Under the pieces are notes generated by a model that saw nothing but the letters and a program-made list of their open reading frames with translations, did no database searches and had not been told where the DNA came from. Below are positions 1 to 64,000 of a stretch of DNA of 64,000 nucleotides, piece by piece. The position numbers were made by a program, and so were the translations under genes. Source of the DNA: a virus; the IMG/VR virus record IMGVR_UViG_3300045988_176357, positions 32,001 through 96,000 of that record; one strand, 5' to 3'. The first letter of the stretch is position 1. Each line of letters opens with the position of its first letter.

Positions 1-1035
1 TGCTGCACGAACTTTCGCGCGCTTAAGAGACTGTCCGACAAATACCGCATACTGTATATAGGACATCCGCAGGACTACAACGCACTCGCAAAGGATGTCG
101 CAGAGTACTGTCCGATACAGGATATCATCCATGCTGCACAGCTGATACAGAGCGCATCATTGTTCGTAGGGACTCAGACGCTGTTCACCTGGCTCGCATA
201 GTCGATGGGTGTAGACAGAATAGTCTCATGTTCACCTGTATTCAAGGATACTCACATGCGCTGCACGAAGGGATTCAAAGGCGCTTTCATGTACCCTGCA
301 TAGCTTGCCTTGATGCTGCGAAGCTGGGAGTGCCACAACGGGCTGCAGACTTCTGTCGGCTATGTGATAGGCACATACGGAAGCCCTGCTTACATCGACC
401 TGCAGCTTGCTCTGCACAAAGGCAAGTGGGGACATGACGTACTTGTGTCCGATGACGGTTCGCAGGATCCCGGGCTCGTGCAGGTGTGCAGTAAGTGGAA
501 TGTCCCTCTTGTCGGCAACAGGGATCAGCGCCTTGGCCACCAGGTCGGAGACCTTGCAGTATACAAGCGCGGGCTGCAGTATTTCAAGGACAAGGACTGG
601 ATGGTGAAGCTGTCCAGGCGTTTCGTCTGGATGCAGGACATGCAGGACACAATACAGCAGCACGACAGGCTCTGCTGGAAGCCCTGTCTGAGTTCCTGGT
701 GGATTGCGAAGCCCTCGCTTAAAGGTCAGGCGCTGACGACCAGCTGCATCGCCTTCAACAAGGGCGCCATGCCTGAGTAGATCGTACAGGACTTCGGCAG
801 CATGGACATCAGGTCCACCTACATGTAGAAGTATATCTACAGATGGCTGGCACAGTACTACGGCGCAGAACCTTTCACATAGTGGAGCGAAGTGTACACA
901 GCTCCGGGAAGATGCGTCACTGCCGACAGCATACTGTGGAGATAGAAGAACACCCCACAGGACTACTATAAGCTGTCGCAGGAATTGGGACTTCAGTGGG
1001 AACTGAAGGATTTCCAGGACATCATAACAGAATAA
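1..1035 (+). CDS. Glycosyltransferase, two-domain, 5' partial. N-terminal part resembles GT9/heptosyltransferase (…ASLFVGTQTLFTWLAQSMGVDRIV…). C-terminal part carries a VSDDGSQD motif typical of GT2.
   Basis: Frame 1 is open from nt 1 once in-frame TAGs at 199-201, 301-303, 778-780 and further on are read through. Ends at TAA 1033-1035. Motifs read directly from the translation. Confidence 0.45.
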
Positions 1036-1064
1036 CGCTGTGTCCTTAGGAAAAAGGACATGCC

Positions 1065-1688
1065 ATGAACAGACGCGTACTGCTGTTTCTGCTTAAGCTG
1101 TTGTTCAGTTACAAGCGGAATAAAGCCAAAGTTATAGATGCCATAGGCAAGATCCGTATCAGCCTGTTTCCCATGTGGGTGCTGTATCAGCCTTTCCCTT
1201 ACAAAGTGACCGGACAGGACATACAGATGGTGCAGAACAGGATACAGCCCGGTGACATAATACTCACAGGCTGCTCATGGAAAAAGCTGTAGGATCTTGT
1301 GGTGCCCAACAGGTACAGGCTGACACACGCAGGTATCTATGTTGGTGACAATACAGTAGTGCATGCTGTGACGAGCGGTGTATAGTAGCTGCATATTGTG
1401 GACTTTCTCAGATGCGACCGCGTATGTGTGCTGCGTGTCGAAGGCGACCATGAAGCTGCGATAAGACGCGCCATACGTTTCATAGGATAGCCTTATGACT
1501 TTGATTACAGACAGGGCTAGGACGCTCTGTACAGCTTCTAGCTGTGCGCATGCTGCTACAGGTAGCTGTAGTTCCAGAGGAAACCGCTGAAGCTGTTCTG
1601 GTTTACGTTGCCGTCCATATGTGGCAAGTACTATTACGACAAGTCCTTCGTGGACTCCGAATACTGCAAGGTGATATATGAGTGCTGA
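1065..1688 (+). CDS. NlpC/P60-like or permuted papain-fold peptidase.
   Basis: Frame 0, several internal TAGs, TGA stop at 1686-1688. Motif GDIILTG…HAGIYVGDNTVVHAVTSGV…C is typical of YiiX/NlpC-P60 folds. Confidence 0.4.
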
Positions 1689-2247
1689 AATAAATGACTA
1701 CTCAGGGTGGATGTACAGTCTGCCTCCCAATCCTCAATAGAAGGACTGGAAACAGCTGGCGACTAAACTGAAGTCCTATATAGAGTCGCCTAAATTCATG
1801 CGCACAGGTTCTACGTACGCATAGGTTGACCCTGTGTCAGGCAAGCTTGTGAAGCGCCCTGTGTCCGATGTCGTGCACAAGGTATCACCATAGGACAAGA
1901 CAGGAGTGAAGGCTTAGGACCTCAGAAGCATGATCCAGCAGGCAGTCGTTACAGGCGATAAGCAGCTGCTCAGAGACGTTTCCAGGTACAAGTACATCAC
2001 TGCGCATAAATTCGTTTCATAGAAATAGATGCAGAAATAGATGGACAGGCGCAGGAGACGCAGACTGGCGCTGACTGCTTTGATTCTGGGAGGAGCTGGA
2101 ACTACAGCGGGGCTGCTGCCTTTCATTGCCAATAAGGTATCAGGTTATCCTGACCAGGCTTCCACATATACGGATGCTCTGAAGCTCGCAGGTATCGGCG
2201 CCGCAGCAGGCATTGGAACCGCAGGGCTTATATAGAGTTTCAGGTGA
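1678..2247 (+). CDS. Hypothetical protein with Gly-rich C-terminal transmembrane segment.
   Basis: ATG 1678 overlaps the previous stop. Frame 1 with 9 in-frame TAGs. TGA at 2245-2247. C-terminus reads ALILGGAGTTAGLLPFI…GIGAAAGIGTAGLI. Confidence 0.35.
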
Positions 2248-2322
2248 GTAGGCAGATAAATGAGTTCACATTATTGCTGAGTAGGCAGAAAACTACATCA
2301 GTAGGCAGAATATAGGATCAAC

Positions 2323-2724: not shown

Positions 2725-2731
2725 GACATAT

Positions 2732-3475: not shown

Positions 3476-3571
3476 CTAAGGCGTAGCCTACGAAGGATAA
3501 TTGAGTATATGCCCTTAATGTAGCTCTTTTAGGTGGCTTTGTTGCTTTAACTAACAAATGAGATTATTCAA

Positions 3572-3877: not shown

Positions 3878-3884
3878 GGTTCAG

Positions 3885-6767
3885 ATGTTCACAAGTTACA
3901 AGCCATAGCAGTTCACCAGATACCCCACTACAATAGTTCCTGACTTAAGCGCAGGATTCGATACTCCGGAAGCCACAATATAGCTTCTTGGAGTTTCCGA
4001 CAGCGCATCCGTTACAGTCACTGCCACAGGGCCGAATACAGCCAAGAAGTTCCGGTTCAACTTCAAGCTTCCAAAGGGACATGATGGTGCCGCAGGAGGC
4101 TTTGCTTAGCCTGTGGCAACTGCGCAGCAACTTGCCTAGAACCAGTCGCCCACTGTTCAGGTTACTGCATCCGGACCATCTTCAGCTAAAGTGTTCGCTT
4201 TCGAATTCGGCATTCCAAAGGGTGCGACCGGACCTAAGGGATAGAAGGGCGATACAGGGCAGCAAGGTCCGAAGGGCGATACAGGAGATACAGGACCTCA
4301 GGGATAGACAGGCGCTACCGGAGCAACGGGTCCCGCCAATACGCTTACCATAGGCACAGTATCTTCAGGTGACACTGCCGCAGCTACCATTACCGGTACA
4401 GCTCCCAACCAGGTTCTGAATCTGACATTGCCTAAGGGTTAGCGTGGTGCCAGCTTCACTGTCGATGCTACCGGCTTATTGTCCTAGAGGCCCACGTACG
4501 ACGCACAGACCAAAGGGTTCTCGTTCCTGGCTACGGATACTGGTAACTTGTACATCAAGCAGTCGGACACATCCGGCGACTGGTCTTAGGCTATTCCTTT
4601 CAGAGGGGAAGACGGAGCTGCAGCCGGTTTCGGCATACCCGTTGCATCCGCTTCTTCATTATAGCCCGCTCAGAATCCTACTGTCACTGTAACAGCTACC
4701 GGTTAGAACACAGCAAAAGTGTTCAACTTTACATTCGGCATCCCCAAAGGCTAGAAGGGCGAAAAGGGAGATCCCGGACAGGCTGGTGCTCAGGGAGCTG
4801 ACGGTGCACAAGGCCCATAGGGACCCGCAGGTCCTGCTAACACGCTTACCATAGGCACCGTCTCTTCCGGCGGCACTGCCCAGGCTTCCATTACAGGTGA
4901 TGCGCCGAACCAGACACTCAATCTTGTACTGCCTAAAGGCGACAAGGGAGACCCGGGAGCAGACGGTGCACAAGGAGCGGACGGAATCACTCCTCATATA
5001 GACGACACCACAAAACACTGGTTCATAGGTGATACGGATACAGGTGTCAGCGCATAGGCTATTCCCGGCGTCACTACGTATCAGATTACAGAAGTCGATT
5101 CAGGCAACTATGCTACTATATACAGCAAGAATGTTCCTGTAGGGCTGAAGACAAACACAGGCACGTATTATCCTATATAGAAGAATACGGTTACTCTGAG
5201 TGACAGCAGCTGCAGGATACACCTTATACCTTATCTCAGTTACGAAGGCACTGATACATTCACTCCTCCGTGGACGTTGTATGTAACAGGTGCAGGCGCT
5301 GACGGGCAGCCAGGCAAGGACGGTGTGGCTGGCGGCTACGGCAATGTTCTCGGCGGGTTAGGTATGCGCATTGCAGCATACACCTCTGATTCAACTACAG
5401 TAACCCTTACGCTTGATGACAACTCAGATTCCACTTTCGACTGGAGTGTACTGCAGCCGTCATCAGTTGTCCGCATCAATAACACAGGCGGCGATCATCT
5501 CGTAGACAGCGACGCACAGTAGTAGCTGTACTACCTGAAGGGCTATATCAGCAGTGTCAACCAGGCAACTAAGAAAGTTGTCATCGATGGATGGTACTAC
5601 GCATAGTCTCAGTAGCGCAGAGAGATAAGTTCCAACATCAGTTCGTAGGTCCAGCAGGAACAGTCCTGGCTGTACATTACAGATGAAGCCAGACGCGATG
5701 CCGCTTTCAGTACAGGCGACAAGAACTTCGTCACAGGACACAGGGCCGTCGCAAACGGCTCATGGAACACTGTCGCAGGCGATATGGCACATGCCTCGGG
5801 AGGTCTCAACACAGTAGCAGGAGATCTCAGCCACGCTTTCGGTACAGCCAACAATGTACAAGCTGAAAGCGCTTTCGTAGCCGGTGTTGGTAACACAGTA
5901 AAAGAAACTGCAGGCCTGTCCATAGTTATTGGCGGCAGCAACGAAGTGCAGGCTTTCGGCTCCACCATTATTGGCAGCAATAATACAGGTCTTACCGGCA
6001 CGAACATGACTGCCATAGGTAACAGTAATGAAGGCTCCGGTACGCTGAGTACTGTTATCGGTAATAATAACACCATTAATGGGCAGTCAGGCAGAGTACT
6101 GGGCTTCGGCAACACCATGAACGCTCAGTTCGGTACACTGATAGGCATGCACGGAACGCTGGACAGCTATGCGTAGAACAGAGGAGCGTTCGCAGTTGCA
6201 ATAGGTTAGCTCGATCAGGCGCAGCTTCCTTTTATAGTGCGCGGATACAAAGCTGTACTGAATCCCCTGTTCAACTCAGACAGCACATCCTAGTCGCAAT
6301 TCCTTCTTCTGAACCCGAAGGACAGAACAGGCTAGCACAAGTACAACTCATAGCCTGGCTGCTCGGTGAGCTATATGGGACATCTCCTGGGCAACACATT
6401 CACTACGGACGCCACAGGTACCATAAGCCTGGATCATGACTTCTACAGCAGATGGGTGCTCACAGGAACAGGTGCCGTCACATTGCAGGCGGACAACTGG
6501 GTGGACGGAGATACAGGACACGTTGTAGTGGACACATCGAAGCAGACAATCAGCATTCCTGCTACATGGATCACAGGAGGCGCTGACATCGTGTCGACTC
6601 CTGGTATATATGTGCTGGAGCTGGTAAAAGTGAACTAGACCATATACTACAAAATAGTGTATCCTAATACAGAATCCTCAGGAAGCACCGGCACAGGGCT
6701 GGCGGTGGTCGTGAGTTCCACTCAGCCCTCGAACCCTGTAGACGGCATGATCTGGATACAGGAGTGA
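3885..6767 (+). CDS. Tail fibre protein with collagen-like Gly-X-Y segments and a C-terminal Hep/Hag-like beta-helix repeat region.
   Basis: Frame 0 links track ORFs 5277-5522, 5784-6176 and 6366-6638 (all frame 0) across about 35 TAGs. The first ATG follows a TGA at 3867-3869. TGA stop at 6765-6767. Contains GPKGDTGDTGPQG(TAG)TGATG and repeats GSNEVQAFGSTIIGSNNTGLTGTNMTAIGNSNEG. Confidence 0.7.
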
Positions 6768-7678: not shown

Positions 7679-8740
7679 ATGAACATAAGTACTTAGAACC
7701 TTATTGATCTCGCTGGATCTGTACAGCTTAAGCCAGGGCAGAGAATGGTGCGTGTATCAGGCAACACATGGATGCCTATTGGCGTCGGCGGCAACTTCAT
7801 GCCTGGAGGAACAAGCGGCACCTCGGCAGAGTATTACAAGTGCGCCAGCGTTGCGGAGCCAGGCACCTTATCGGTCAATATACCGAACAATGCAGAACTT
7901 TCCGGGGTATATACTTACAATTCGTCAAATGGCAGATATGTAAATACAAATGGTGCATTCTTTTTGCATGACGGAAATTACTGGGTGCTGGTAGGTACCA
8001 ACGGATACTATTACTGTCAGAGCGATGAAATAGCATCTGATACTACTCCTGCTGACGCCACAGGATGGAAGCTGTCAAGTGGTTCAATGGATGCTATAGA
8101 TATGACTGTGACTATACCGAAGACATGGAGCGGCTACAAGGCGGTATTCGACTCAACGGCTGGAACGTGGAGCTTCGAGAGCGATGCCACAGAGGGGCTG
8201 ACATATACCAGCGTCACGCCGATCGTCGGCGGAATCTACAGTGCGGATGCCTTGGTGATTGTGTCATTGCTTTATACGGGCACGCCAACGCTGACCAGTC
8301 CTACCGGCATGCCCAGCGAGAGCTCCGACGAGTGGGAAATCAGTGCCAGCAGTTTCTACAGTGATAACTCTGCTCCGTGGAAAGCCTTCGACGGGATAAC
8401 AGGTAGCTCTTCTGGATGGACAGGAGCATCAAATTCTTCGTGGTGGCTTCAGTGGCAAAATAAGACGAAACAAGTGCTTGTGCAGAAGCTCAGATTTCAG
8501 GGTACAGCTTCCGGTGATATCGCACAGCAGGCTATCACCTCTTTCATCCTTCAGGGCTCTGATGACGGCAGCACATGGACAGACTTGTATACTGCGTCAG
8601 GCTTGACATGGACTACTGGATATGAGTGGAAAGAGTTCACGTTCTCGAACAGCAAGAGCTACTACTACCATAGGTTGGCAAACATCACCGTAGCTGCAAA
8701 CTATCCTACCATTATTGAACTTGAAACCTATGACATGTGA
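7679..8740 (+). CDS. Tail or receptor-binding protein with a C-terminal F5/8 type C (discoidin)-like carbohydrate-binding region.
   Basis: ATG 7679 preceded by AGGAG. Frame 2. One TAG at 7694-7696, then track ORF 7745-8740 ends at TGA. Motif WKAFDG…SSWWLQWQ…FQG. Confidence 0.45.
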
Positions 8741-9651: not shown

Positions 9652-11316
9652 ATGGCAGAAAAGAATGTACAGCTCAAGTGCGGTTAGGACTTGCTGTATC
9701 CGAAGACGAAGCTCGCTATGGTGGACGGGCTCATTGATCAGGATACAGGAAAGATCGACACTGCGCTTCTCCCGAAGACAGGGATTGACATCAAGTACAA
9801 CAACGGCATGATCTAGCAGGGAGTCACGTAGATCAACTTCGCAGGCACTGTTACAGTGTAGAAGACTGCGGACGGCGTTGTCAAAGCACGTATCGGCTAG
9901 AACCAGAACAGCTCCAACTTCAACTCCAAGGACGGCGTTACCGATGGTACTGTGTCGTACTCCGGCATCACTGCAAAGAGCATGATCATGACGACACCCG
10001 CCGACTAGACCTGGGGTATCGGAGACTGGGCTGCAGGTTCCACGCATTCCGGCTTCAACGCATCCACGGCTTCCTCTCAGAATGTCACTGTGACGACCGC
10101 CGGAAATATCCACTTCTAGTAGGAGAACAGCTCCTTCACCGCACAAGTCATCGACTGGTCCGGTGTTGCAGCACAGACCACCTTCGCTGTTGGTTCTGAC
10201 GGAACTGTTACGCCCTCCGGCGACGCCGGAATCACATGCTCCATCGCCAGCTACGGCACAGAAACAAATGCGCCTGCAGCTGTGGGCAACATGGGCAAGC
10301 CGACGTTCACGTTCGACATGAAGCAGCTTCTTCCTTAGGGCGGACGCTTCCACTTCAAGATCGTGCACAACAACGGCACATAGGGCGCCTTTACATGGGA
10401 AATGTAGTAGCTGTTCTACAATGCAGGTACGACGCCGACAGTTGCGACGCCTGCAATTGAGTTCGCTTCACAGGATACGACTCAGGTGTCCGGTGTCAGC
10501 TACATCAGCAGCGGGACGCTGAACGTCACGTCCGCGCAGATTGCCAATCTCAACAAGCGCGCCGCAACTACAGGCAACAAGGTTGCAGTCTCCGGCTCCT
10601 ACACGACGTACACATACAATGCGTCGCATCTGCAGGACTACACGCTTTAGTAGAACGACGTCACTGCGTTCGCTTCCACTGTCACGCTCGCAACGGGCAA
10701 GTCTCTTGCAGGCAACCTGTCTGTGAACATGAATGCGACCAATGCGTATGCGACCTCCGGCAATGTAGCCAGCAATGCCATCGCCGCTCTTGTCGACACT
10801 CTTGCAGCAGGAACGACAGATGCCACTGCAAACGAGTCCTTCAAGACCTAGACCTACAGGTTGAAAGCGGACTGTTCCACACCTTGGGACAGTACATAGA
10901 GCCTCGCAGCCAACGACGGTCTGCAGCAGATGCACAAGCAGCTCAAATATCCGACGCAGAACTTCTCTGCGTACACTCCTGCAGGACCTGATTACTCGGG
11001 ACTCACAGGATTCAGGTACTACATCAGAAGCTTCACGTTTGTCGGTACCAAGTTCGGAGGCACGTTCACGTTCGGCAACCTCACATAGAGCGATCTGGAT
11101 GCAGCCAAGCTCACCATTGAAGTGTCCAAGGACGGCTCCACATGGTACGACATCACCAAGACGTAGGCGTTCGGAGGTATCCGCGTGTTCGCAGATACTG
11201 TTAAGGCTCCGAAGCTGCAGTTCGCATTCGCAGACGCAGCTTCCGACGTCATCTACCTCCGCATCGGAATGAACAACACATTCACCAAGGCTCTCACAAG
11301 CCTTGCGTTCGCATAA
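9652..11316 (+). CDS. Large virion structural protein, probably a tail component.
   Basis: ATG 9652 with an AGGA RBS. Frame 1. About 17 TAGs. TAA 11314-11316 verified in frame. The two long minus-strand standard-code ORFs here (9481-10368, 10468-11538) are Cys/Arg/Leu-rich and read as antisense artefacts. Confidence 0.5.
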
Positions 11317-14449: not shown

Positions 14450-14878
14450 ATGTACGCTAAGATATAGAACGGTTCCGTGGTTTATCCTCCACGGAACGAC
14501 GGAAACAGATTCAATGTCGATACCTGTGTATAGTGGCTTCAACAGCACGGCTTCACAGATATGACAGCGTAGCAGCTTGCTCCTTATCTTACACAGGAGA
14601 CAGTGGATTATACAGCTTTCGATAACGCATGTCAGATGTTCCGTCAGGTCTGCTATCAGATAGGCGGAGCCATAGGCAACGCATAGTTCAAAGGAGGCTT
14701 CGACTAGTACGCCTCTTTCATTGACTCACAGTACGCACAATAGAATCCGGCACAGGCTGCTTTATATGCTGCAATGTGGTCCGGTGCTAATGAGTATGCC
14801 AAATATGAAGGCTCCAAGATCGGTCTCGGGCAGCCTGACTGGTGGTACAGGTGCTGGGACATACAGAAGGAAGCATAA
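14450..14878 (+). CDS. Hypothetical protein, possibly a tail fibre assembly or chaperone protein.
   Basis: ATG 14450, frame 2, TAA 14876-14878 overlapping the next ATG (TAATG). Assignment by position only. Confidence 0.35.
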
Positions 14879-17039: not shown

Positions 17040-17085
17040 TGTTAGACTATAGATGTACATTGTAACGCATAATGTACTTTCGTAA

Positions 17086-17130
17086 GGTTTCCCGCGTCGT
17101 CACCATACCGGCGCGGGATTTTTTATTTTG
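17086..17130. terminator. Rho-independent terminator at the end of the tail-fibre block; could act in both directions.
   Basis: Hairpin cccgcg…cgcggg followed by T6. Sits between convergent + and - genes. Confidence 0.55.
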
Positions 17131-50098: not shown

Positions 50099-52027
50099 AT
50101 GATACAGAAAAGAATCGTCCCTTAGGCTTCCGATTTCGGAGGATAGGAACCTGTACAGATACTTAAAGTCAGTTCCAAAGGGTTGGATAAGTCTGCATCC
50201 ATGCAGAAACGTGCAGCAGCTTTCGACGACATCATAGCAGATCTGAAGCCGATGCCCAAGAAAGCGTACCTGCACGTTATCACTACTGGAGCGATGTAGC
50301 ACTTCGGTATCAACAGGAACTGCTTCGTAGCAGGTACTATGGTTGTCACCTGGAATGGCACGAAAGCAATCTAGCACATTCGTGTGGGTGATCTTGTGCA
50401 GAGCGGCAGCGGTTAGATGCGTAGGGTTAACGACACATCTGCCAGGTGGTACAAAGGTCAGCTTGTAAAACTGACAGCAAAGAACGGATAGATCGTTGTC
50501 ACCATGACATAGGATCATCCGGTACTTGTTCTCGATGCCAGCTAGAAGTGGGGCGACTTTGTTTCTGCCAAGGATATCAAGCCTGGAGCTAAGTTGCTGG
50601 TACCTGACGACAAAGTAACATAGACCGCACTGAAATACAATATAACTGTAGACAAGGTGTAGTTCACTTATACAGAGTCAACTGTCGTCTATGACCTGAA
50701 GATCGAAGTCGAACGTACCTTCTGCGTTCCTTTTGTCGTGCACAACTGCGACGGCTGGAATTAGGATGCTTTTGTGTACAGACCTCCGATGCCTAAAAAT
50801 GCATCCTGCAAGTAGATTCAGCTCGATGGCGGACTCAGGAAGTACCATTCGACATACCTGGACAAGGCAGCTGTATATCAGGAGCACCAGACTGACAAGT
50901 AGAAGTCAGGATAGGTGAAAGCAGCTGTGTACAATGATAAGATGCACAGAGGCTAGTTGCTCATTGAAGTGGACACTGACAAGTGGGCATAGCGGCTGAA
51001 CAAGAAGGCGAACGGCCAGGACATATTCCTTTCGGTTGGAGCTTCGCTGAGAACCGATTATTGCACCGCCTGCGGGAATGCAGCGCACACGCTCGACTAG
51101 CACTGTTAGCACATCAAGAAACATGCAGGAATGGTGCTGTCAGACGGTACCAAGATCGGCATGATAAACGATGCTCCCAAGTTCTATGACATCTCAGGAG
51201 TGAACGTACCTGCAGACCAGATGGCATTCGTGCTGCGCAAGGTAGCATCAGGCGACAGTGCAGCCAAGGCCATTGAAGCTGCGAGGTTCCAGGCAACAAG
51301 ACCTCCTATGTCATTGTCAAAGGCTGCAAGACTTCTCGGTAAACTCGCGTAGCTGTAGAAATGCATTCAGTGTGAAGCACAGGACGATCCGATCTTTGCT
51401 GACTCTCCGGAAGCTGTGGAAGATTTTCTAAAAGCGGTATAGAATTACGACGCCGACTAGATCATCGATCAGTGCAACCGCAAGGCAATCCTTCTGTCAC
51501 CGAAAATGCTCTTTAAGATCCTCGGCAAGGAATCTGATAATCAGTAGCTGTTCAATACCTTTGCCTAGAGCTGCCCTTGCAGTGGTCAGCACCTCATGTA
51601 GGATATGCAGCAGGACTAGGAATTCAAGCCTATGCTCAGCGACGGCAGTTTCGATTCTGTGCTTCCTGTAGATCTCACTTTATAGGATGTTCTTAAACAG
51701 TTCATACCTTAGTTTGGTGTCAGCAGGCCTGCTCTGAACGGCAAAGCTATACGAATATAGATAACATCCGCCTAGCCTTAGAAAGATATGCAGCAGTTCA
51801 AAGACAAACTGCAGGACAGCATGCAGGACTCAGAATCGAGTTAGGACGATGATTCCGGTGATCGACAGAATGAGGATTCAGACAAAGAGGAGGATATGTA
51901 GAAGAAGGCGTCTCTCGTTGGAGACCAGTTCAGAAGAACATATGCCAGATACGTTCTGAGTTTTGCTTAGCGTAACAGTTAGGACACCTGCATGTTAGCC
52001 ATGCAGAAGCTCGCCAGATATAAGTAA
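50099..52027 (+). CDS. Head-morphogenesis protein of 642 aa carrying a mini-intein, with a zinc-binding CxxC…H…H region and an acidic C-terminal tail.
   Basis: ATG 50099, frame 2, includes track ORF 51131-51352. TAA 52025-52027. Confidence 0.45.
50321..50746 (+). mobile_element. Intein 6, a mini-intein.
   Basis: …HFGINRN|CFVAGTMVVTWNGTKAIQHIRVGDLV… Block B VTMTQDHPVLVL. Ends …VVYDLKIEVERTFCVPFVVHN|CDGWNQ (canonical HN+Cys). Confidence 0.6.
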
Positions 52028-52077: not shown

Positions 52078-53334
52078 ATGAGTATGCTTAACAAGAAAGC
52101 CGCTTTTCTCCACGATCTGCTTGTTCAGTCCGGAGCGCTGCACAAAGTTGCAGGCGGCGAATAGATTACAGAGAAGAAGCTCGATGCTCCGCAGCCCACT
52201 ATCGGCGACAAGATGCAGAATGAAACCGAAGAGGCTACGAATGGCAACTATGCTTCCGATCCCAGTGTGAACGCCGAGGTCAAAGGCACTGTCGAAATGG
52301 TAGAGAACAAGATCGAAGGCGACGATGACAAGAAGGCTGAAAAAGACCTTGCAGAGACCGGTACTGATGTGAAAGACGTATGTCCTGCAGGTATGCCTAC
52401 AGGAACTCCTGCTCAGGTTGCAAAGTCTGCAGCTCTCAAGCAGAAGCTCACGGCCTGCATCAATGCCCAGATCGAAAAAGAAGCCGCTATGAAGAAAGCA
52501 GCTGAAGAAGCTGAGCTTGCCAAACAGGCTGCAGCTAAGCAGGCTGAGAGCAATGAAGTGATGACAGCTACCGAAGTTCTTAACAAGGTTGCATCTTTCA
52601 CTGAGGACAAAACAGCTGAAGAACTTGCAGCGCTTACTGACGACATCGAAGTCAGCTTCAAGAAACTCGCTGCTACCAATCCGCTGTTCAATGTTGCCTG
52701 CGAACAGGCTCTGATTCGCAAGATGGCAGCTGAGGTTGAAGCTCTTTCAGCATCTGAAGGCATTCCTCCGGAAGAAGCGGCTGCGGCGCTCGATGCTGCT
52801 GTCGCTGAAGATCCTGAAGCGATGAGTGAACTTACTAACGAGGCTGAAGGTGAGGCTCTGTCTGATCTTGCAGCTGCGGAACAGGACTCTGCTGCTCTTA
52901 TGGACGGACTCGACCAGACCGCTGCACAGCTCTCTGAAGCTCTTGGTGAACCCGTTACAAGTGACGATATTCTCGCGGCTGTCGATGAAGTCACTGCTCA
53001 GGCCGAACAGCTTGGAGTTCCTCCGGAAGCTCTCGTTCAGGCTGCTGCAGCTGAGATGGCTCAGGGAGCTTAGATCTCTCCTGAAGATGCAGCTGCTGCT
53101 GAACAGCTTGTCAGTGATGCTGCTGCTCAGGGTGTTTCTCCCGAAGAGCTTGTCGAAGGCATTGCTCAGGCTGAAGCTGGTGCTGCCCCTGTCGAAGGTG
53201 CGCCTGCGGAGGCTCCTGCAGCTGAACCTGCACCCACTGAAGAGTAGCTCGCAAAAGAAGCTTGCCTCAGAAAGCTCGCATCTACGAAGCGCGGCGCCAA
53301 TCTCATGAAGATTCTTACTGCCAGCGGCAAGTAA
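52078..53334 (+). CDS. Scaffolding protein: acidic, Ala/Glu-rich and alpha-helical.
   Basis: ATG 52078, frame 1, includes track ORF 52213-53073. Only 3 TAGs. TAA 53332-53334. Sits directly upstream of the decoration and capsid genes. Confidence 0.5.
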
Positions 53335-53344
53335 GGAGCGCACA

Positions 53345-53752
53345 ATGTCACAGGACTTCCAGAAGATCGCTGAAGAAGCGATTAAACAGTGCGCAGAATA
53401 TGAAGCTCGCATTAACCAGCTCCAGGAACAGATTGCTCTCACCAAGAAGGCAAATCTGGCCGATCCTGAGCTGGTTAAGAAGTCCGTGGAAGCTCTCACT
53501 AAAACAGGAGGTATCACGGCATAGCAGGCAGACGAGACAGCTCAGTTGCTTGCCCACGACCCAAATGCCTCCTTAAGAGCTATTCAGGCTCTGTGCGACC
53601 GCTACACTGACGCAGCTCCCATTGTGAAAAAAGAATCCGATATATAGGGCGGCAGGCTTGTTGATACATTCAATAAGCAGGCATCGGCGGCTCCTGTTGA
53701 AGACGCATACGCTGCAGTTGCCCGTGTCCTCGGACTAAAGATGAATAAATAA
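53345..53752 (+). CDS. Hypothetical protein.
   Basis: TAAGGAG RBS, ATG 53345, frame 2, 2 TAGs, TAA 53750-53752. Confidence 0.4.
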
Positions 53753-53763
53753 AGGAAACTATT

Positions 53764-54348
53764 ATGGCTATTACAAGGTCTGTTAAACAGCAGTACGAGT
53801 ACTACGTTGCTGTTAAGAGCGGCGTTCTTGATGAGACCAACTGTCTCATGCACACGGCTGTGCTGAATGAGAATGCCGATAAGGTTGTTCGCGGCTCTGT
53901 TATCTCTCTGAATGCTGCGGGCGAATTCGTGCTTGGGCTTACTGAAGGTTCCGGCAATCTGTATCCGATGCCCTGCTTCGCGAAGAAGAATGCGTTTGAT
54001 CCGGATGTCATGACCGGCGCTGTCGGCAGTGCTACCGGCGAAGTTATCGCCAGTTCTACTGTCGGTAAGAAGATGTCCGCCTATGTTGCTACGGGTGCAT
54101 TTGAAATCGAATCCTCTGAGTTCGATAAGGATGCTACGTATGCGATCAATGCTGCACTTGTCTGTGCTGATGGCGACAAGCTTGGAAAGGTCACTCCCGG
54201 TGGTGCGAACGCTGTGTACGGAGCGAAGACTGTCGTCGGTATCGTCAGTGCGCTTCCGTTCCGCTCCAAAGCCAGCCTGAACGTGAACGGCACTGCTGTT
54301 AACCGCATCTGCTTCTGGTCGGTCTTCTTCCCGCCGAAGCGTGGTTAA
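53764..54348 (+). CDS. Putative head decoration protein (gpD-like), 194 aa.
   Basis: Complete standard-code ORF with zero TAG codons. AAAGGAAA RBS. Placed between scaffold and capsid genes. Assignment rests on position and a loose resemblance to lambda gpD only. Confidence 0.4.
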   Translation: MAITRSVKQQYEYYVAVKSGVLDETNCLMHTAVLNENADKVVRGSVISLNAAGEFVLGLTEGSGNLYPMPCFAKKNAFDPDVMTGAVGSATGEVIASSTVGKKMSAYVATGAFEIESSEFDKDATYAINAALVCADGDKLGKVTPGGANAVYGAKTVVGIVSALPFRSKASLNVNGTAVNRICFWSVFFPPKRG

Positions 54349-54404
54349 TCCGCTGTAAGATAAACCAGGGGAGCGTGTCTCCCCGATAACTATAGGAACG
54401 CAAT

Positions 54405-55418
54405 ATGTACACTTCCGATCAGATTGCTGCCATCAATCAGGAGTTTAAAGACAAGCTCCTCAGCGATGACTCCGCTATGGTGAAACAGGCGGGACTCGCA
54501 GGCACCACATATTTCCGTACGCGCATTCGCTAGAATGCCGTATACCGCAAGCTTCTTCCTCCGGTCTCCGTTACGGCTGACAACTTCGATGTGAATGAAG
54601 CCTCCGACCTTCCCAGCATGATTGTCGAGCTCGACATCAACTCCGAAGGTGCAATGCAGGTTCCGTTTGAAACGGCTACCACCGGCGCAACCTTCAACGG
54701 ACGCAAGGCGAGATGTGAATTCGGGCGCATCATGACGCCGAAGTACGAGATCGACAAAATCCGTCTTACCGGATACAAGATGCCGATCCTTGACATCCTG
54801 TACGACCTCATGCTCAAAGACATCATGGATGTCGAAGACGAAGCGTGGGCGGCTGTCAACCAGGAAATCGTCGGCAATGCTGATAACCAGACCGATCAGA
54901 TCGCTGAATTCGGTCTCCGCCGCGCTATCCGCCAGACCTGGGATCGTGAAGGCGTTGCCGGTCTCGGTGCTGCGGCTGCCGGATTGCTCCGCACGAAGGG
55001 CAAATTGAAACCGTCCAAAGGACTCATGAACGAACTTCTGTACATCAGAATGGCTGAGTGGGATCGAAATACCGTTGGCGGCGATATGGCTCAGGACATG
55101 CTGTTCGATGGTGTCACGACCGGCAAGCTGAACAAGCTCGATGTCCTCGTCACCTCCAAGGATACTGTCTGCTCCGAATACGATCTGTGGGTGTTCACTG
55201 ATCCGCAGTTCTATGGTGCGAACTACACGTACCAGGATGTCAGCATGGTTACGGACGAAAAGGATGGAATCTTCCTGAACTTCTTCGCCTATGAGACCAT
55301 CGGCGGTATCGTTGTGAACAGAGCCGGTGTCTGCAAGGTCACGTACGATGCGAAGAACATCAACGAGTGCACCTTCTGGACTGATCCGGTTGATGCTTCC
55401 GACGCCATCGGTGGCTGA
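54405..55418 (+). CDS. Major capsid protein (probable), 337 aa.
   Basis: ATG 54405, frame 0, a single TAG, then track ORF 54591-55418 ends at TGA. Followed immediately by a strong terminator. Position after scaffold and decoration genes. Confidence 0.5.
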
Positions 55419-55439
55419 TTGAAATCAGGTTGCTGATTA

Positions 55440-55472
55440 TAAAAGCCCTCCGTAACAGGAGGGCTTTTTTTA
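55440..55472 (+). terminator. Rho-independent terminator.
   Basis: aaagccctcc…ggagggcttt followed by T7. Confidence 0.7.
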
Positions 55473-55520
55473 TGTCCTTAATGTGGTAAACTGTAAGAAA
55501 CCAACAAGAAAGGAAGTATT

Positions 55521-56309
55521 ATGTCAGTAACTATTCAGACCGTCATCACCAACAAGAGTCGCGGAGTTCGTTCCCTTATTGTTTCCAGATCAAAGACGTA
55601 CAGTCTCAGAGCAGGAGAGACAGTAGTTCTCGATTACGATATCTGGTCGTACCTCACACCTACAGTAAAACGGAAACTTGAACTGGATGTGCAGATGGGA
55701 AGACTCGAGATCACAACAAGGCTGTTCACAGACAATGCCAACATCTCTGTCGACCCTGATGGAACATATAAGATTGCCAACGGCGGACTTGAGGTCGCCA
55801 AGCCCAAAGAGCAGGTGAAAGAAAATAAGCTCCCGGCAGCCAAGGCTGACAAGGCCACCACCAACGGAAAACTGTTTGACAACAGTGGTACGGTTATGGC
55901 TGACAAGAGCTCGTCTGTCATGCAGAAAGCCATCGGAGCCAAGCGTGTTGAGGCTGGTAATACAGATCAGACAGAACAGCCTGCACAGGACAAAACAGGA
56001 TTCACTAAAACCGACATGAGCTCCTCGGGTCTTATGCATACTATGAACAATCTCGAACCTGCACATTCATCCAGCGTGTTCAAAGCCACCTCGACAGATA
56101 CAACCAAAGCAGAGGAAGAAGCCAAAACAGAAACAGAGAAAGAACTGTCACGTCCTGAATACATCGACGAACTGTATGCAGCTAAAGATTACACAGCCAT
56201 CGCAGGAGCGCTGACAGAGTGGTATCCTGGAACAACGTTCACAAAGGCTTCTATCAAGAAATGCAACAGCTATGCTGAACTCAAAGAAAAGTACCCTGTG
56301 CTTGCGTAA
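55521..56309 (+). CDS. Hypothetical virion protein, 262 aa, with no TAG codons.
   Basis: Complete ORF in the standard code. AAAGGAAG RBS. TAA stop. Followed by a terminator. Confidence 0.5.
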   Translation: MSVTIQTVITNKSRGVRSLIVSRSKTYSLRAGETVVLDYDIWSYLTPTVKRKLELDVQMGRLEITTRLFTDNANISVDPDGTYKIANGGLEVAKPKEQVKENKLPAAKADKATTNGKLFDNSGTVMADKSSSVMQKAIGAKRVEAGNTDQTEQPAQDKTGFTKTDMSSSGLMHTMNNLEPAHSSSVFKATSTDTTKAEEEAKTETEKELSRPEYIDELYAAKDYTAIAGALTEWYPGTTFTKASIKKCNSYAELKEKYPVLA

Positions 56310-57284: not shown

Positions 57285-57680
57285 ATGCGGTACACAAGAA
57301 CCTAGCTGGCTAACCACTATAACGTCACAAAAGGAAAGCTTCGGCGTATATTGAAAGCGCTGCAGCTTCAGCCTGTGTAGGTTGAACGTACTGCTACAGG
57401 GCGTCCTGTGTTCTATTATGCCGACAGCACTGTGTTGTAGATCGACAAATACCTGGATGCTCTTATGCAGAAGAAACAGCAGTAGCTTGTAAAGTGCTGT
57501 ATATGTAAGCAGAGTGTCAGTAAGAGCAGTATGATCGGCGGCAGATGCCAGATGTGTTATGTGAAGAAGTGCTGTGCACCTATTATGTACGGAAAGTAGT
57601 TCTGGAACAGGAAGGTAAACGCACAGACTGTCAGCACAGCTATTCGTTATCTGCAGTCAATGTTACCTGGCTCCACGTGA
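57285..57680 (+). CDS. Putative DNA-binding protein (HTH-like N-terminus, Cys-rich zinc-finger C-terminus). An overlapping frame-2 ORF, 57545-57823, is an alternative.
   Basis: ATG 57285, frame 0, TGA 57678-57680. Confidence 0.3.
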
Positions 57681-58072
57681 CAGGTTTGAACAGTCTGCGA
57701 AGCTTCCTTCTGGTGGCTTTCTTTTTGGCTTTTCTGTGCATCGAATCCGGTGTGACCTATCTGCCACCTGGAGTAGAATTCATGCCGTACAGTGAATTGA
57801 AAGAGCCGTACTTCTTTATGTAGCGCTTTTCCAGTCTGTCCAGCTGCTTGTTAGGCGCCTATTGGAGTATCTAAACTGAGAGCTGATCCCAGTTACCTGT
57901 AGCTTTGAGACGTTTAAGCTCCCTGACCAGCTTTGTACAGCCTGACCAGGGAGCCTTGTGTCGCTACCAGCGCTTTGAGAACGGCGTAGTGGATATGCCT
58001 ATGTAGTGCTTCTGTCCGCTTGTTATGAGATACACATAACCGTTACCCTTCTTGGGTACGTACTAAAAGTAG

Positions 58073-58492
58073 TCAGGATGCATCACCAAGCAGCTCTTTT
58101 ACACAGCATCTTTTGCTGTGTCTGATTTTGTTCATGTGGTAGTGAGCTGCACCGCATCCTCTGCACACATACAGCTGCTTCTTGTGGAAGTCACTAGATA
58201 CATACAGACTGTCTATGTTGAACAGCAGCTGACGCACTTTGCCTGACACTGATCGCTTGTTCCAGTCAGCAAGGTCGCATGAAGTGTGCCACAAAGCGCA
58301 ATCAGCCGTGTTGCATTTCACTTCAGCGCCTTTTCCGTTCTCATAGACGTGCACTTCAGGAATACTGCCGCAGAAAGGACAAGGCAGAACATGCTTAGGC
58401 AGCTTGGCTGTGCCTATTTCGTACTTGTCTGTACCTGGCACTTTGATGCCGTTCCTGCGGAAGATCTTATCTATGACTGTGTGTTTGTGCAT
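58073..58492 (-). CDS. Lar-family-like (restriction alleviation) zinc-ribbon protein with a second CxxC ribbon.
   Basis: Standard-code ORF on the minus strand with no TAG. LPCPFCGS…C…C resembles the Lar CPFCG motif, followed by YVCRGCGAAHYH. Confidence 0.5.
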   Translation of the reverse strand: MHKHTVIDKIFRRNGIKVPGTDKYEIGTAKLPKHVLPCPFCGSIPEVHVYENGKGAEVKCNTADCALWHTSCDLADWNKRSVSGKVRQLLFNIDSLYVSSDFHKKQLYVCRGCGAAHYHMNKIRHSKRCCVKELLGDAS

Positions 58493-58596
58493 GCTGTTCC
58501 TGTTGGTGTCTCTCCTGTGAAGTATAAAAGGGGCCAGAGTGCTGCAGGAGTTCAGTACTCTTGTCGACTGGCCGGTCTAGGCCCCTTGGAATTAAC

Positions 58597-58924
58597 TGGC
58601 GCTCCCACTGAGATTCGAACTCAAGATCTGGCGGATTTCATTGATAATCGAGGACTTACAACAATCCTGATATCTCTGGACTATATCATCTTCTCCGTTT
58701 CCAGAGAAGGAGCGCTTCGGACTTTCGTCCTACTCCCTTGCGGGATAGTCTCTGAACCCTTTCCGGGCTCCATAGCTTTCGCCTTAGGAGATCCCTTGAT
58801 CGGCTGCTGATTGCCTTCGGCGTTACCCGTTAAGGTGTCCCAGCAATTCACTTTCTTGTTCGACACACCTCGCGGTGTGAAGCTCCAAACAGAGTCCGCT
58901 GTTCTGCCATTAAACTATGGGAGC
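58597..58924 (-). tRNA. Amber-suppressor tRNA, anticodon CUA, split by a group I intron. Exons are 58924-58891 and 58638-58597.
   Basis: The spliced product folds as a cloverleaf. Acceptor GCUCCCA/UGGGAGC, U8, D-arm GUUU-AAUGGCA-GAAC, anticodon stem GCGGA/UCCGC, loop C-U-C-U|A-A-A giving anticodon CUA, T-arm UUGAG-UUCGAAU-CUCAG, discriminator G, encoded CCA. Confidence 0.7.
58639..58890 (-). mobile_element. Group I self-splicing intron (252 nt) inside the suppressor-tRNA anticodon loop.
   Basis: 5' exon ends in U, which pairs as U•G with the internal guide GGAG (a 4-bp P1). The intron ends in G (…CAAUG). P7-type core strands UUCAGAGACUAUC and GAUGAUAUAGUCC are present. Confidence 0.65.
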
Positions 58925-58931
58925 ATAATAT

Positions 58932-59007
58932 TGGTTGCGGGGACAGGATTCGAACCTGCATATCCAAGCTTATGAGGCTTGTCGGCAACCGTTGCCACCA
59001 CCCCGCC
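58932..59007 (-). tRNA. tRNA with anticodon CAU (Met, or Ile2 if lysidine-modified).
   Basis: Reverse-complement sequence read directly: GGCGGGGTGGTGGCAACGGTTGCCGACAAGCCTCATAAGCTTGGATATGCAGGTTCGAATCCTGTCCCCGCAACCA. Anticodon stem CAAGC/GCTTG, loop CTCATAA. T-loop GGTTCGAATCC. Acceptor GCGGGG/CCCCGC with a possible 1•72 mismatch. The D-arm register is slightly irregular. Confidence 0.6.
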
Positions 59008-60837: not shown

Positions 60838-60838
60838 C

Positions 60839-61678
60839 ATGTCCTCTCCGTTCGATTCCATAAAGGTATTTGTGCAGCCGAATGGCACCAGAGTCGTCAG
60901 CTGGCAATTTACACATGGAGTATAGATTCCATAGACCGCTACCATAACTGTTCAGAGAGCACGAGCTGGTGGCTAGTGGTAGACATTGGAAGAGGGGCTT
61001 CCTGTCTCTTACTGCTACTCTGATACTACCGCCTGGAACAGGAACAAATATCAGAATGACTATTACAGGCTGATACTTCAGACACAAGACGGTCAGAGCT
61101 ACACATCAGATCCGCAGCATACAGGTATGACTCTCTCATATCCTTACTATTCATAGGCTGCGAATCTCATAAGACTGAGCTAGTTGTAGATACAGAGAAC
61201 AGGAAGATAGGGGTATCTGCTGAAAAAGATAACCTATGGACCAAAATGTCCTGTATGTCAGCAATTCGGTGACGATCATCCTGTAAACTAGCACTGTCCT
61301 CAGTGCCTTGGTACAGGTAAAAAGGGCGGGTACTATAAAGCGATTCCTTTAGGTGTTCTGTAGCAAGGATAGTCAGCTGACCAGTCTGTAGCCATGTCCG
61401 GGCAGTAGGTATCATAGACATTGACTGTGAAATGCACTGCATGGCCGATAATACAGCACGGAGATGTGTGGACAGATAAATATACAAGTCTCAGATACTA
61501 CATAGATAAGATACAGGTCGCTTCGAAATTTAAACATGTGCCTTTGATATATACATTACAGATGCATTTGATATAGCAGTCGGATATAATGTATACTGAT
61601 AATGCTGATCAGCTTATTCAGGAAGCACATGTTTAGTACAGCAACCCTGACTGGGACAAGGCCTTCGGTTAGTTATGA
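60839..61678 (+). CDS. Hypothetical protein with a CxxC…CxxC zinc ribbon. The 3' end may be over-extended into an AT-rich region.
   Basis: GGAGG RBS and ATG 60839. Frame 2. TGA 61676-61678. Confidence 0.3.
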
Positions 61679-61740
61679 TATTTACAGACTACACATAGAA
61701 AAGCACATTTCAGAACGGTTACGCTCAGCAGTACCGTATC

Positions 61741-62352
61741 ATGAAGTACTTCAAGGATCTGCTCAATAACTGGTTTGCAGATAAGAGAAACATAAAGGAC
61801 TAGCGCCTTGTCAGTCTGCTGTATGATGTTAATGGGAATCTGAATAAGGACTGCTTCAAGACAGGTACTGCATTCAATCCTGACGGCACTTATGCAGGTA
61901 CTACACCTGCTGTTGTTGTCAGTCTTGGCACTGTCACATACCAGAACAGACCTATTAACAGAGCAGGCAATCCCTAGTTCCTCAGGAATCCAATGCAGCC
62001 GCCTGTAAAATAGTGCAGATTCAAGCTCATTCCGATTCAAATTACCGTCATTACATAGAGTTGTGACGGTACTATCTTATTAGCTGAACTCATATAGCTG
62101 TTTCTTGCTATGAACAGTTAGGTTATACAGCAGGACACAAATGCTCTAAGTTTCGTCAACGTGAACTAGATAAGCAGTCCACAAGCTGTACAGCCCGGAT
62201 CAGGAGGCAACGCGAAACAGCTGTATGCATCTACCATATCTGTGTCTACTATGAGTGTACTCACTTGGACAACAGATACACAAGGACCTGTGTTCAATGG
62301 TTACAGCATGCGGAATGCGGAGCTCGGCAATATTAAGGTAACTAACAGCTGA
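61741..62352 (+). CDS. Hypothetical protein.
   Basis: ATG 61741, frame 1, about 9 TAGs, TGA 62350-62352. Confidence 0.35.
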
Positions 62353-62397
62353 TATGCCCAACAACGTGTCAGTATCGAAACAATAAGGATAAATATG

Positions 62398-64000
62398 ATT
62401 ACAGACTATAAGGATCCTAGTGTAACCCTTAATCAGGTTTACAAGGCATCCACTGTCGGTACTACACCGGCGTTGGGAGCCTGTATTATCGGTCCGAATT
62501 ACTTTGTACGTACATATTCCGACCTGAAGGAGTCTCTCAGACTCGACAGTTAGGACAATTACGCAAAGTAGGACTATTCGGTCGTGTATACTCCTGCAGA
62601 CGGACTTTCCTTCAGATACTTCCCTGGAAGAGAGACGAAAGACGGCAGTGTAGACGAAGATTCCGTGAAGGTGCTTGTCAAAAACGCCCAGCTCTAGTAC
62701 CTTCCTGAGTTCGGAGCTTCTGACAGCATCACTACGGATGCAGTGTATGGTACAGATACGATCAGTATCAAACAGGAAGGCATCTACTATGTCTTCAACG
62801 GTGCAGGAAGCGACACATCTGTTCCGGCTGTTCAGGCTGGAGACGCAGTGAAGATCACTGTCGCCGGGGATACTGTTGACTGCTACGTTCAGGGTTTCCT
62901 CAGAGACGACGGAGGCAAGTATACCAAGTGCGTTCTTACCAAGAGTCTTCCACAGGGAGACATCACTGCGGTCAGTTTCAGGCGCGTTGTCGATTGCTAT
63001 GTCAACCAGGCATATGTGACTGTCCGCACCGTCGATGGCGTGCAGCAGGTTTCCATCCAGCCTAATGCAGAGGCGACCGTAGATCTCGGTATCGGTCAGA
63101 CAGAGTATCCTATTCTGACAGGTGCTTTCTATGTCGAATACAGGTGTCGGTCCAATCGCTATGTCGGTACTTATGGCATGGTCGCTGATATCGATGATGT
63201 CCAGGGAATGCTTGGCAAAGTCTGCGCGGACAATCCGCTAGGTGTTGCTGTTGCGTGCGCTGTGACTGAATCCGATGGCGCATTCGTGTACTTCACAGCC
63301 ACTGCATAGGAAGACCTCAACAACAGCGCTGTTAAGGTGTACAACGATGCGGCGGATCTCATTGCCGACACTGACGGCATTTACGGCATTGTTCCGTGTA
63401 CTGCCGATGCAGAAGTTACGAAAAACCTGTTCAACTTCGTGACCAACCAGTCCGGTGAGTAGGTTCCGTATCCCAAGTATCTGTATGGCAGCTGCGACAT
63501 TCCGACTGAAGAGAAGCTGAATGGTACGTATCTCACTGTGACAGATTCTTCTGCTTCCGGCAACACAACTACGGTAACGTTCAGCAGCTCTCCGCTGCTT
63601 GCTATGTCTACGGTTGTTAAAGGCGATGTGCTTCGCATAGGCGATAAGAGCTACACCATCACTGGTTCCAACCACAAGGACAAGGTGTATGTTGCAGGCG
63701 ATCAGACAGCAAATATTGCTTCAGGCGCCGTTGCAGACATTTATCACACGCTGACTGACAACGCTCAGATTGTGGCAAGTATCATTGCGGCTAAACCGGT
63801 TGCCGACAGACGAGCATCCATTGTGTTCGCGGACGGCCCGATGTACAACGGATAGCCGGTTCACAATTACTGTGTTGCAGCTGCTCTTGCTGGAATGCGT
63901 TCCGGAACTTATCCGCATGCTCCCCTCAGCAATGTTACCGTCACCGCTGTCACGACTTCATAGGAGCATGGGTTTACAGCCAGTCAGCTCAAGCAGCTCG
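62398..64000 (+). CDS. Large structural protein, tail sheath or tail-tube-like candidate, 3' partial.
   Basis: AAGGA RBS and ATG 62398. Frame 1 links track ORFs 62743-63309 and 63538-63855 through TAGs. Runs off the window end. Confidence 0.45.

Follow-up and report, generated by a model that had tools for sequence, protein, structure and literature searches.

Which amino acid does a phage insert at TAG when this codon no longer ends its genes? The question is raised by a 64,000-nucleotide (nt) stretch of the IMG/VR virus record IMGVR_UViG_3300045988_176357 (positions 32,001 to 96,000 of that record), hereafter the window, in whose coordinates all features are given. An initial annotation of the window had proposed that TAG is a sense codon throughout, that TGA and TAA are the only terminators and that the code is 'table-15-like', table 15 being the phage code in which TAG is read as glutamine (Gln). 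The first two proposals are borne out below. The table 15 label does not fit: alignment columns, amino-acid composition, codon exchange with relatives, catalytic sites and the ancestry of the relatives' tRNA(CUA) all point to glutamate (Glu) and not to Gln, and we estimate the probability that TAG specifies Glu in this phage at roughly 0.85.

Under the standard code the + strand falls apart into fragments, as had been claimed, and open reading frames (ORFs) of at least 150 amino acids (aa) cover only 0.208 of the window. When genes are re-called with TAG read through, this 21% rises to 89% (0.893), compared with 0.532 when TGA is taken as sense (table 4) and 0.31 when TAA is. Greedy tiling of the TAG-sense ORFs yields 65 genes that span 95.1% of the window, whose G+C content is 49.6%. 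These genes hold 628 in-frame TAG codons among 20,272 codons (3.1%), and their stops comprise 34 TGA, 30 TAA and no others. The stitched ORFs singled out initially were reproduced exactly; they are given here after the region as a whole:

1-64000, both strands: TAG-sense region, with TGA and TAA as the only terminators and TAG probably read as Glu
3885-6767, + strand: collagen-repeat tail-fibre-like ORF, 960 aa, 26 TAG
21022-23154, + strand: 710-aa ORF, 26 TAG
29988-37889, + strand: fused RNA polymerase beta-beta' gene, 2633 aa, 64 TAG (Pfam Rpb2_6, 3e-36, and Rpb1_2, 2e-21; intein; LAGLIDADG)

Pfam domains continue across the TAG codons of the stitched ORFs, and database homologues likewise run through these positions. 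The presence of such domains in stitched + strand ORFs, together with the coverage, therefore means that TAG is a sense codon in the window genes. The collagen contexts noted initially were also found, GPQG-TAG-TGATG in 3885-6767 and LPKG-TAG-KGDTG beside LPKGDKGDTG in 12716-14440; the aspartate (Asp) of the second paralogue was an early hint of an acidic residue. Two other statements need qualification. Overlap of stops with the next start is common, with 12 exact cases among 64 gene junctions (ATGA 8, TGATG 3, TAATG 1) and a further 19 junctions with a gap of at most 15 nt, but it does not occur 'very often'. Coding on the + strand holds for most genes but not for at least two minus-strand islands (c17296-18108 and approximately c57631-59007), in both of which TAG is also sense.

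The amino acid at TAG codons

The composition of the window proteins gives a first indication. GAA and GAG (together GAR) account for 2.5% of window codons and Gln codons for 5.0%, and GAR-Glu alone spans 2.5-2.8% of codons in the tiled and homologous gene sets. Table 15 would thus give a proteome with 8.1% Gln and 2.5% Glu, while TAG as Glu gives 5.6% Glu. In the window genes with homologues, GAR plus TAG amounts to 6.0%, and CAR (CAA and CAG) plus TAG would amount to 8.4%; the same proteins of standard-code relatives contain 5.5-7.2% GAR and 3.2-4.5% CAR.

The fused RNA polymerase allows this comparison to be made column by column. Its ORF contains four inteins (aa 182-530, 638-970, 1232-1384 and 1979-2545), in agreement with the initial description of a fused and intein-laden enzyme, since Rpb2 and Rpb1 domains lie in this one ORF. 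We removed the inteins and searched with the exteins, masking TAG as X, which returned 120 full-length homologues. The 18 closest (61-67% identity) contain approximately 2.4% Glu (E, in one-letter code) and 6.7% Gln (Q), and the other 102 approximately 5% E and 3% Q. The unusual composition of the former is explained by how they were translated. In the recoded relative L001, the stored protein P0004 departs from a standard-code reading at 57 positions, and all 57 are TAG codons that were given as Q; the low-E, high-Q homologues are therefore a recoded clade whose proteins a gene caller translated with table 15, and public collections store the clade proteins (P0001-P0018) with Q at every TAG. 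Against the 102 homologues of normal composition, 38 extein TAG sites align with E at 53.2%, Asp (D) at 16.2% and Q at 3.5%. As a control in the same alignment, GAR-Glu sites of the query show E at 55.9% and CAR-Gln sites show Q at 28.7%.

We extended this analysis to relatives' loci from IMG/VR (77 anchored on the RNA polymerase and 38 on the capsid protein), keeping the 84 that are clearly standard-code and scoring log-likelihoods against amino-acid profiles learned from the same alignments. In 264 TAG columns from 15 genes, the residues found in these loci are E (26.0%), D (12.8%), A (6.6%), K (6.3%) and Q (4.8%), and E is the majority residue in 95 of the 264. The log-likelihood is highest for E (-687.8), followed by Q (-730.0) and D (-741.3), and E wins in 2000 of 2000 bootstraps. 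It is the best fit in 13 of the 15 genes, the other two holding only 3-4 columns, and all seven control amino acids (E, Q, D, K, N, S and A) were assigned correctly. A run with 214 columns gave a Pearson correlation of 0.988 with the Glu profile and 0.575 with the Gln profile, and the Glu result persists when the RNA polymerase is left out. A Glu fit accompanied by a proportional depletion of GAR is what a TAG-as-Glu code would produce, and both are found. On this reading, about half of all Glu codons have turned into TAG, with the exception of those in the most abundant capsid proteins.

Recoded relatives provide a further view, because TAG and CAG are one transition apart and would exchange freely if they were synonymous. 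Window TAG codons align in relative L079 with TAG (63), GAR (49) and CAR (12), and in relative L083 with TAG (27), GAR (70) and CAR (8). Opposite window TAG, CAG and CAA are thus approximately 4-9 times rarer than GAA and GAG, which argues that TAG and CAG are not synonymous.

TAG also lies at positions where the residue matters for function, including conserved motifs of the RNA polymerase and the ligase, as had been pointed out initially. The genes concerned, besides the fused RNA polymerase, are:

38279-38971, + strand: SLT lytic transglycosylase (Pfam SLT, 5e-8)
38968-40272, + strand: DNA ligase with a LigD-type phosphoesterase domain, 13 TAG (Pfam LigD_N and solved-structure matches)
43262-45319, + strand: second RNA polymerase gene, beta' C-terminal part, 29 TAG (Pfam Rpb1_5, Hint insert)

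In the fused RNA polymerase, TAG takes the place of the second Glu of the beta GEME motif, a residue that 96 of the 102 homologues have as E, and further TAG sites are also near-invariant Glu in homologues. In alignments with solved bacterial RNA polymerases, which are distant and hence informative at invariant sites only, TAG stands opposite four acidic residues, namely the Glu in GEME and in ISE, the first Asp in LVDDK and the Asp in PLD. For the gene of the second RNA polymerase, E fits best at its 23 TAG columns. The E-S motif of the transglycosylase reads ALAQT-TAG-SS, with TAG at 38561-38563 in the Glu position; we take this Glu to be catalytic in the SLT family and Gln there to be inactive. 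In the ligase, TAG falls on the glutamate of the 'EG' in a motif IV-like QxGFIIHP, as read by eye.

Inteins are not confined to the fused polymerase ORF. Further Hint or intein inserts interrupt 50099-52027 as well as the second RNA polymerase gene, and the intein content of the RNA polymerase differs among relatives (lengths 1400-2136 aa). The fourth intein of the fused ORF carries the LAGLIDADG domain, and its C-terminal end reads ...VQD, followed by T, and not the usual HN.

The clade to which the window belongs can be outlined from these searches. Assemblies made independently from different samples (L001, L005, L079-L083 and L085) use TAG in the same way, in many cases at identical codon positions. 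Across the recoded clade, TAG makes up 1.2-3.9% of codons and GAR plus TAG 6.0-8.6%, and G+C ranges from 39% (L001) to 50% (the window). The relatives are phages of 160-200 kb with a fused beta-beta' RNA polymerase, which upholds the initial view that this is not a crAss-like or Lak-like genome. The nearest cultured phages are Salmonella phage Arash and Vibrio phages D181, D148 and D69 (29% identity in the RNA polymerase), unclassified Caudoviricetes of 180-187 kb that use the standard code. They have the same order of portal, beta-beta' and second RNA polymerase genes; the window shows this Arash-like layout, with a portal gene beside the fused Rpb2/Rpb1 ORF and a second beta' C-terminal gene. 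The window phage is a tailed member of this large, mostly standard-code group of 160-200 kb.

Suppressor tRNAs and the anticodon-loop intron

The window encodes a tRNA(CUA) interrupted by an intron. ARAGORN without an intron search and Rfam gave only a tRNA-Met, beyond which the 5' half of a second tRNA could be read; when introns were allowed, ARAGORN found a tRNA(CUA) that occupies c58597-58924 and is split after position 35 by an intron of 252 nt. The major head protein gene near this module served as the anchor with which we fetched the same region from recoded relatives. The features are:

54405-55418, + strand: major head protein (phrog_2522), 1 TAG in 337 codons
58597-58638, minus strand: tRNA(CUA) exon 2, CCA end encoded
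58639-58890, minus strand: group I intron of 252 nt, inserted between nt 35 and 36 in the anticodon loop
58891-58924, minus strand: tRNA(CUA) exon 1, positions 1-35, ending ...GCGGA-CUCU, the final U preceding the 5' splice site
58932-59007, minus strand: tRNA-Met(CAT), directly upstream of tRNA(CUA)

The clearest view of the origin of the suppressor comes from the relatives. In L079 and L080, whose capsid protein is 85% identical, an intron-less tRNA(CUA) is followed by tRNA-Met, the pair and order of the window. L081 and L082 have a separate intron-less tRNA(CUA) beside the capsid genes, and L083 has one there with a 273-nt intron. Among the best 40 phage matches of the L079 tRNA(CUA), 39 are annotated as tRNA-Glu (up to 86% identity), and across 5,426 E. 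coli genomes it matches tRNA-Glu genes only. The 26-nt 5' half of the L079/L080 gene occurs in 65 bacterial tRNAs, every one a tRNA-Glu (33 UUC and 32 CUC anticodons); the closest, Cloacimonadota tRNA-Glu(CUC) genes, also match the 3' strand of the L079 acceptor stem. This 5' half, U11-A24, U13.G22 and a 4-nt variable loop are common to the L079/L080 tRNA and bacterial tRNA-Glu, and C36 -> A is what differs, so that the L079/L080 suppressor reads plainly as a tRNA-Glu(CUC) with this one anticodon change.

Known identity elements are in line with this ancestry. Those of tRNA-Glu comprise G1-C72, U2-A71, U11-A24, U13-G22:A46, the lack of residue 47 and the anticodon loop, while those of tRNA-Gln comprise U1-A72, G2-C71 and G3-C70, the first of which is also used by amidotransferases (PMC9976931). 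U1-A72, G2-C71, G3-C70 and the further Gln determinant U38 are absent from all four phage tRNA(CUA) genes, each of which keeps U13.G22. The spliced window tRNA(CUA) folds into a clean cloverleaf with G1-C72, U11-A24, U13.G22, A37 and G73. Its position 2-71 is C2-G71 and its variable loop is longer than in the tRNA-Glu type. As this tRNA has diverged, its proposed Glu identity rests on the protein evidence together with G1-C72, U11-A24 and U13.G22.

The distribution of the module follows the code. No tRNA module was found beside the capsid genes of 38 standard-code IMG/VR relatives, so that the module goes with recoding. A search of IMG/VR for the pattern of a tRNA-Glu-type CUA suppressor gave no match; the relatives in the recoded clade were found only in ENA and Logan assemblies. 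A scan for promoters and terminators around the window's tRNA module returned nothing better than chance.

The intron has several marks of group I. The exon CUCU pairs with the intron GGAG to form P1, with a U.G pair at the splice site, and the 3' end of the intron is ...AATG, with a terminal G. The match to Rfam Intron_gpI (E=1.4e-5) reaches 31 bits and so falls short of the gathering score, which is 50. The L083 intron is homologous, its core being highly conserved with compensatory changes; Rfam reported no match for it at E<=0.01. We infer that the anticodon-loop intron is self-splicing. In cyanobacteria, tRNA-Leu(UAA) carries a group I intron in its anticodon loop, and the window intron likewise sits in an anticodon loop and has the splice-site U.G and the terminal G; it differs in that its host gene is an amber suppressor and in its insertion between nt 35 and 36 of CUA.

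The same intron family also occurs outside tRNAs. In L194 (IMGVR_UViG_3300045988_177579), at least four copies lie within 3 kb (at approximately 3225, 3690, 4961 and 5891), with the core GAAAGTGAATTGCTGG ... AATCAGCAGCCGATCAAGGGA, and none of them is in a tRNA. The family is mobile, and one of its copies lies in the suppressor tRNA. When the window gene (c58597-58924) is compared with that of L083 (c16817-17164), the intron cores are very similar and the tRNA bodies quite different, with only the anticodon loop and the T loop well conserved, which suggests that either the intron has homed into the anticodon loop of CUA tRNAs or the tRNA body has diverged fast. Directly downstream of the L083 tRNA(CUA), positions 16711-16781 on the minus strand match Rfam int-alpA at 36.1 bits (gathering score 35.8). 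The window's tRNA-Met(CAT) has a G1.A72 mismatch, and its anticodon stem is without the GGG/CCC run.

Based on these features, we propose the following mechanism. The phage-encoded tRNA(CUA) would first be transcribed as part of the minus-strand module, and the group I intron would leave the anticodon loop by self-splicing before the tRNA is used. The spliced tRNA would then receive its Glu, most likely from the glutamyl-tRNA synthetase (GluRS) of the host. It would escape both glutaminyl-tRNA synthetase (GlnRS) and the amidotransferase GatCAB, because it offers neither the pairs that GlnRS uses (U1-A72, G2-C71 and G3-C70) nor the U1-A72 needed for amidation, and would not be converted to Gln. 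The phage presumably does this in a standard-code bacterial host. For the RNA polymerase ORF with its 64 TAG codons, 99% read-through per codon yields 53% full-length product and 95% yields approximately 4%. As a 50% yield from such an ORF needs read-through of approximately 99% per codon, release factor 1 (RF1) must lose the competition with the tRNA, be inhibited, or be weak in the host to begin with, and we infer that it is outcompeted or neutralised.

Competing readings and known codes

Several observations weigh against Glu and should be set beside the alternatives that they favour. The assignment is a statistical one, drawn from sequence alone. Across genes, Gln content rises with TAG density (rho 0.41), and the per-gene correlation of amino acids with TAG is ambiguous, being negative for E and positive for Q; in raw counts, TAG in the relatives stands opposite window CAG about as often as opposite GAA. 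With 64-71% identity to sequences of the tRNA-Glu type, the window tRNA(CUA) is divergent, and the database entries that match it best are of mixed isotype (Asn, Arg, Trp, Lys and 'TERM'). No aminoacyl-tRNA synthetase or release-factor gene was found among the window proteins that were scanned. A synthetic E. coli tRNA-Glu amber suppressor, studied by Normanly et al. in 1990, was reportedly mischarged by GlnRS in part or for the most part. Finally, GluRS of E. coli relies strongly on U34 and C36 (PMC9976931), neither of which is present in a CUA anticodon. The rising Gln content speaks for table 15 itself, the code that crAss-like, Lak and other gut phages use with an amber suppressor that accepts Gln, and so does the lack of any other TAG reassignment in phage reports to date. 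The main survey found only TAG-to-Gln and TGA-to-Trp and explained these two codes by the susceptibility of GlnRS and tryptophanyl-tRNA synthetase (TrpRS) to suppressor tRNAs (bioRxiv 2021.08.26.457843), and another report (PMC9523058) describes validation of TAG-to-Gln in crAss-like phages by metaproteomics. Gene callers selected table 15 for the relatives, and some exchange of CAG for TAG is observed, as their single-transition distance allows. Nevertheless, Q falls 42 nats short of Glu in the TAG columns, where it is found at 4.8% against 26% for E, and takes 0 of 2000 bootstraps; no standard-code relative has a proteome similar to the one that table 15 would yield (8.1-8.4% Gln, 2.5-2.8% Glu); TAG is rare at ancestral Gln positions, where free exchange with CAG would be expected; catalytic Glu residues would become Gln; and the relatives' suppressor is a tRNA-Glu without U1-A72, G2-C71, G3-C70 and U38. 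We consider a Gln reading improbable. It is only slightly easier to credit that decoding is ambiguous, with TAG mostly Glu and a sizeable share of Gln or termination contributed by host synthetases or RF1, possibly in a regulatory way. In E. coli, GlnRS can mischarge amber suppressors that have the body of a tRNA-Glu, Q comes second among the fits in the TAG columns, L083 and L085 show block-wise TAG use, and avoidance of TAG in capsid genes is expected if its decoding is costly or imperfect; however, one essential ORF contains 64 TAGs and so tolerates little termination, as 95% read-through per codon would give approximately 4% full-length product (0.95^64), and Gln at a catalytic Glu would yield inactive enzyme.

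Other residues are very unlikely to be encoded by TAG. Asp is the second most common residue in the TAG columns (12.8%) and stands opposite TAG in one collagen paralogue, yet its log-likelihood lies 53 nats below that of E, and its share is approximately that of true Glu columns; lysine fits worse still. Pyrrolysine was suggested only by ARAGORN, which prints 'tRNA-Pyl' for any CUA anticodon by default. tRNA-Pyl has distinct D-loop, T-loop and anticodon-stem features, unlike the window tRNA with its GG D loop, TTCGAAT T loop and 5-bp anticodon stem, and no pyl-like Pfam match was found among the scanned window proteins. Least credible of all, to the point of being negligible, is an artefact, whether through assembly or sequencing errors that created the TAGs or because the real genes are encoded on the minus strand with table 4 (TGA as tryptophan). 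The 83% ORF coverage that the minus strand does reach with TGA as sense is a mirror effect of codon usage in the + strand genes, which contain few TTA (63) and CTA (29) codons but many TCA (200). Pfam and homologue matches belong to + strand translations, and the recurrence of the same TAG codons in L001, L005, L079-L083 and L085, which are independent assemblies, speaks against errors. Both the minus-strand reading under table 4 and the pyrrolysine label were rejected, on the Pfam matches to the + strand and on the canonical cloverleaf, respectively.

The Glu reading can be placed among known codes. With the code 15 phages (crAss-like, Lak, Garnet/Topaz and phAss-1), the window phage shares a large genome of virulent type, TAG as sense, TGA and TAA as stops and a tRNA(CUA) of its own, and recoded jumbo phages also carry tRNA introns. 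It differs from the code 15 phages in the amino acid, which would be Glu and not Gln; in the suppressor, which would derive from tRNA-Glu and not tRNA-Gln; in its very high TAG density (3.1%), with TAG in RNA polymerase and replication-type genes and not in structural genes alone; and in its Arash-like lineage with a fused RNA polymerase. Table 30 of peritrich ciliates is a eukaryotic nuclear code in which TAA and TAG both encode Glu and TGA is the sole stop. TAG as Glu would thus be shared with peritrichs, but the window system is viral, and TAA ends 30 window genes and so is a stop here. Compared with the synthetic E. coli tRNA-Glu(CUA), the L079/L080 suppressor is natural and phage-borne, and would act across a whole proteome. 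Our literature search on UAG/TAG-to-glutamate found only ciliate reports, with most subscription journals outside its coverage, and later surveys and tools assume table 15 for TAG recoding. With somewhat less confidence than in the Glu assignment itself, we think it likely that this is a new code for a virus or any prokaryotic system, in which UAG means Glu, UAA and UGA are stops, the assignment is fixed in a clade of large phages, the suppressors derive from tRNA-Glu, and a self-splicing group I intron gates decoding in some members, the window phage among them.

If this is correct, Glu would be the third amino acid among phage stop-codon reassignments, and GluRS, too, could be recruited by suppressor tRNAs. 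Gene callers and databases would be mistranslating approximately 3% of residues as Gln, catalytic Glu included. One RNA polymerase alone has 57 such sites, and homology searches, predicted structures and the inference of active sites would all suffer; other 'code 15' phages may hide a Glu code. A natural and apparently efficient scaffold for Glu amber suppression would be of interest for code engineering, and an intron in the anticodon loop of the suppressor suggests a switch for when the alternative code turns on.

Capsid block and other genes

TAG is not used evenly along the window. The capsid block (52078-56309) is TAG-poor, with 0-3 TAG per gene and Glu written as GAA or GAG; it comprises 52078-53334, 53764-54348, the major head protein gene and 55521-56309, and includes an acidic scaffold-like protein. 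This avoidance is kept in every recoded relative (L079, L081, L083 and L085), and fits a cost or limit of decoding rather than a switch of late genes. In L083 and L085, entirely TAG-free genes stand beside TAG-rich ones, which suggests block-wise or graded recoding.

Additional minus-strand genes in the two islands are:

17296-18108, minus strand: patatin-like phospholipase, 6 in-frame TAG (Pfam Patatin, 1.2e-11)
57631-58083, minus strand: GIY-YIG homing-endonuclease-like gene, 150 aa, 6 TAG (phrog_314, 2e-13; Pfam GIY-YIG, 1.3e-8)
58073-58492, minus strand: Cys-rich 139-aa ORF in the tRNA module, no TAG, with a weak match to Lar (restriction alleviation, E=0.0046)

Overlap with these genes identifies some + strand ORFs as spurious. 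The TAG-free ORFs 17072-17329 and 17407-17958 overlap the patatin gene, and 58391-58810 overlaps both the Cys-rich ORF and the tRNA gene. After the patatin gene comes a small lipoprotein-like ORF on the minus strand (MRKILITVLLGCAMYFGAGC..., 2 TAG) that ends near 17126. GIY-YIG genes occur at the same place in the tRNA module of the relatives.

Several tail-fibre-like genes contain collagen Gly-X-Y runs (3885-6767, 9652-11316, 12716-14440 and 14878-16422) and have internal modules in common, such as ANTLTIGTVSSGDTA...NLVLPKG repeats. The gene at 7679-8740 encodes an F5/8 type C (discoidin) domain and has a single TAG.

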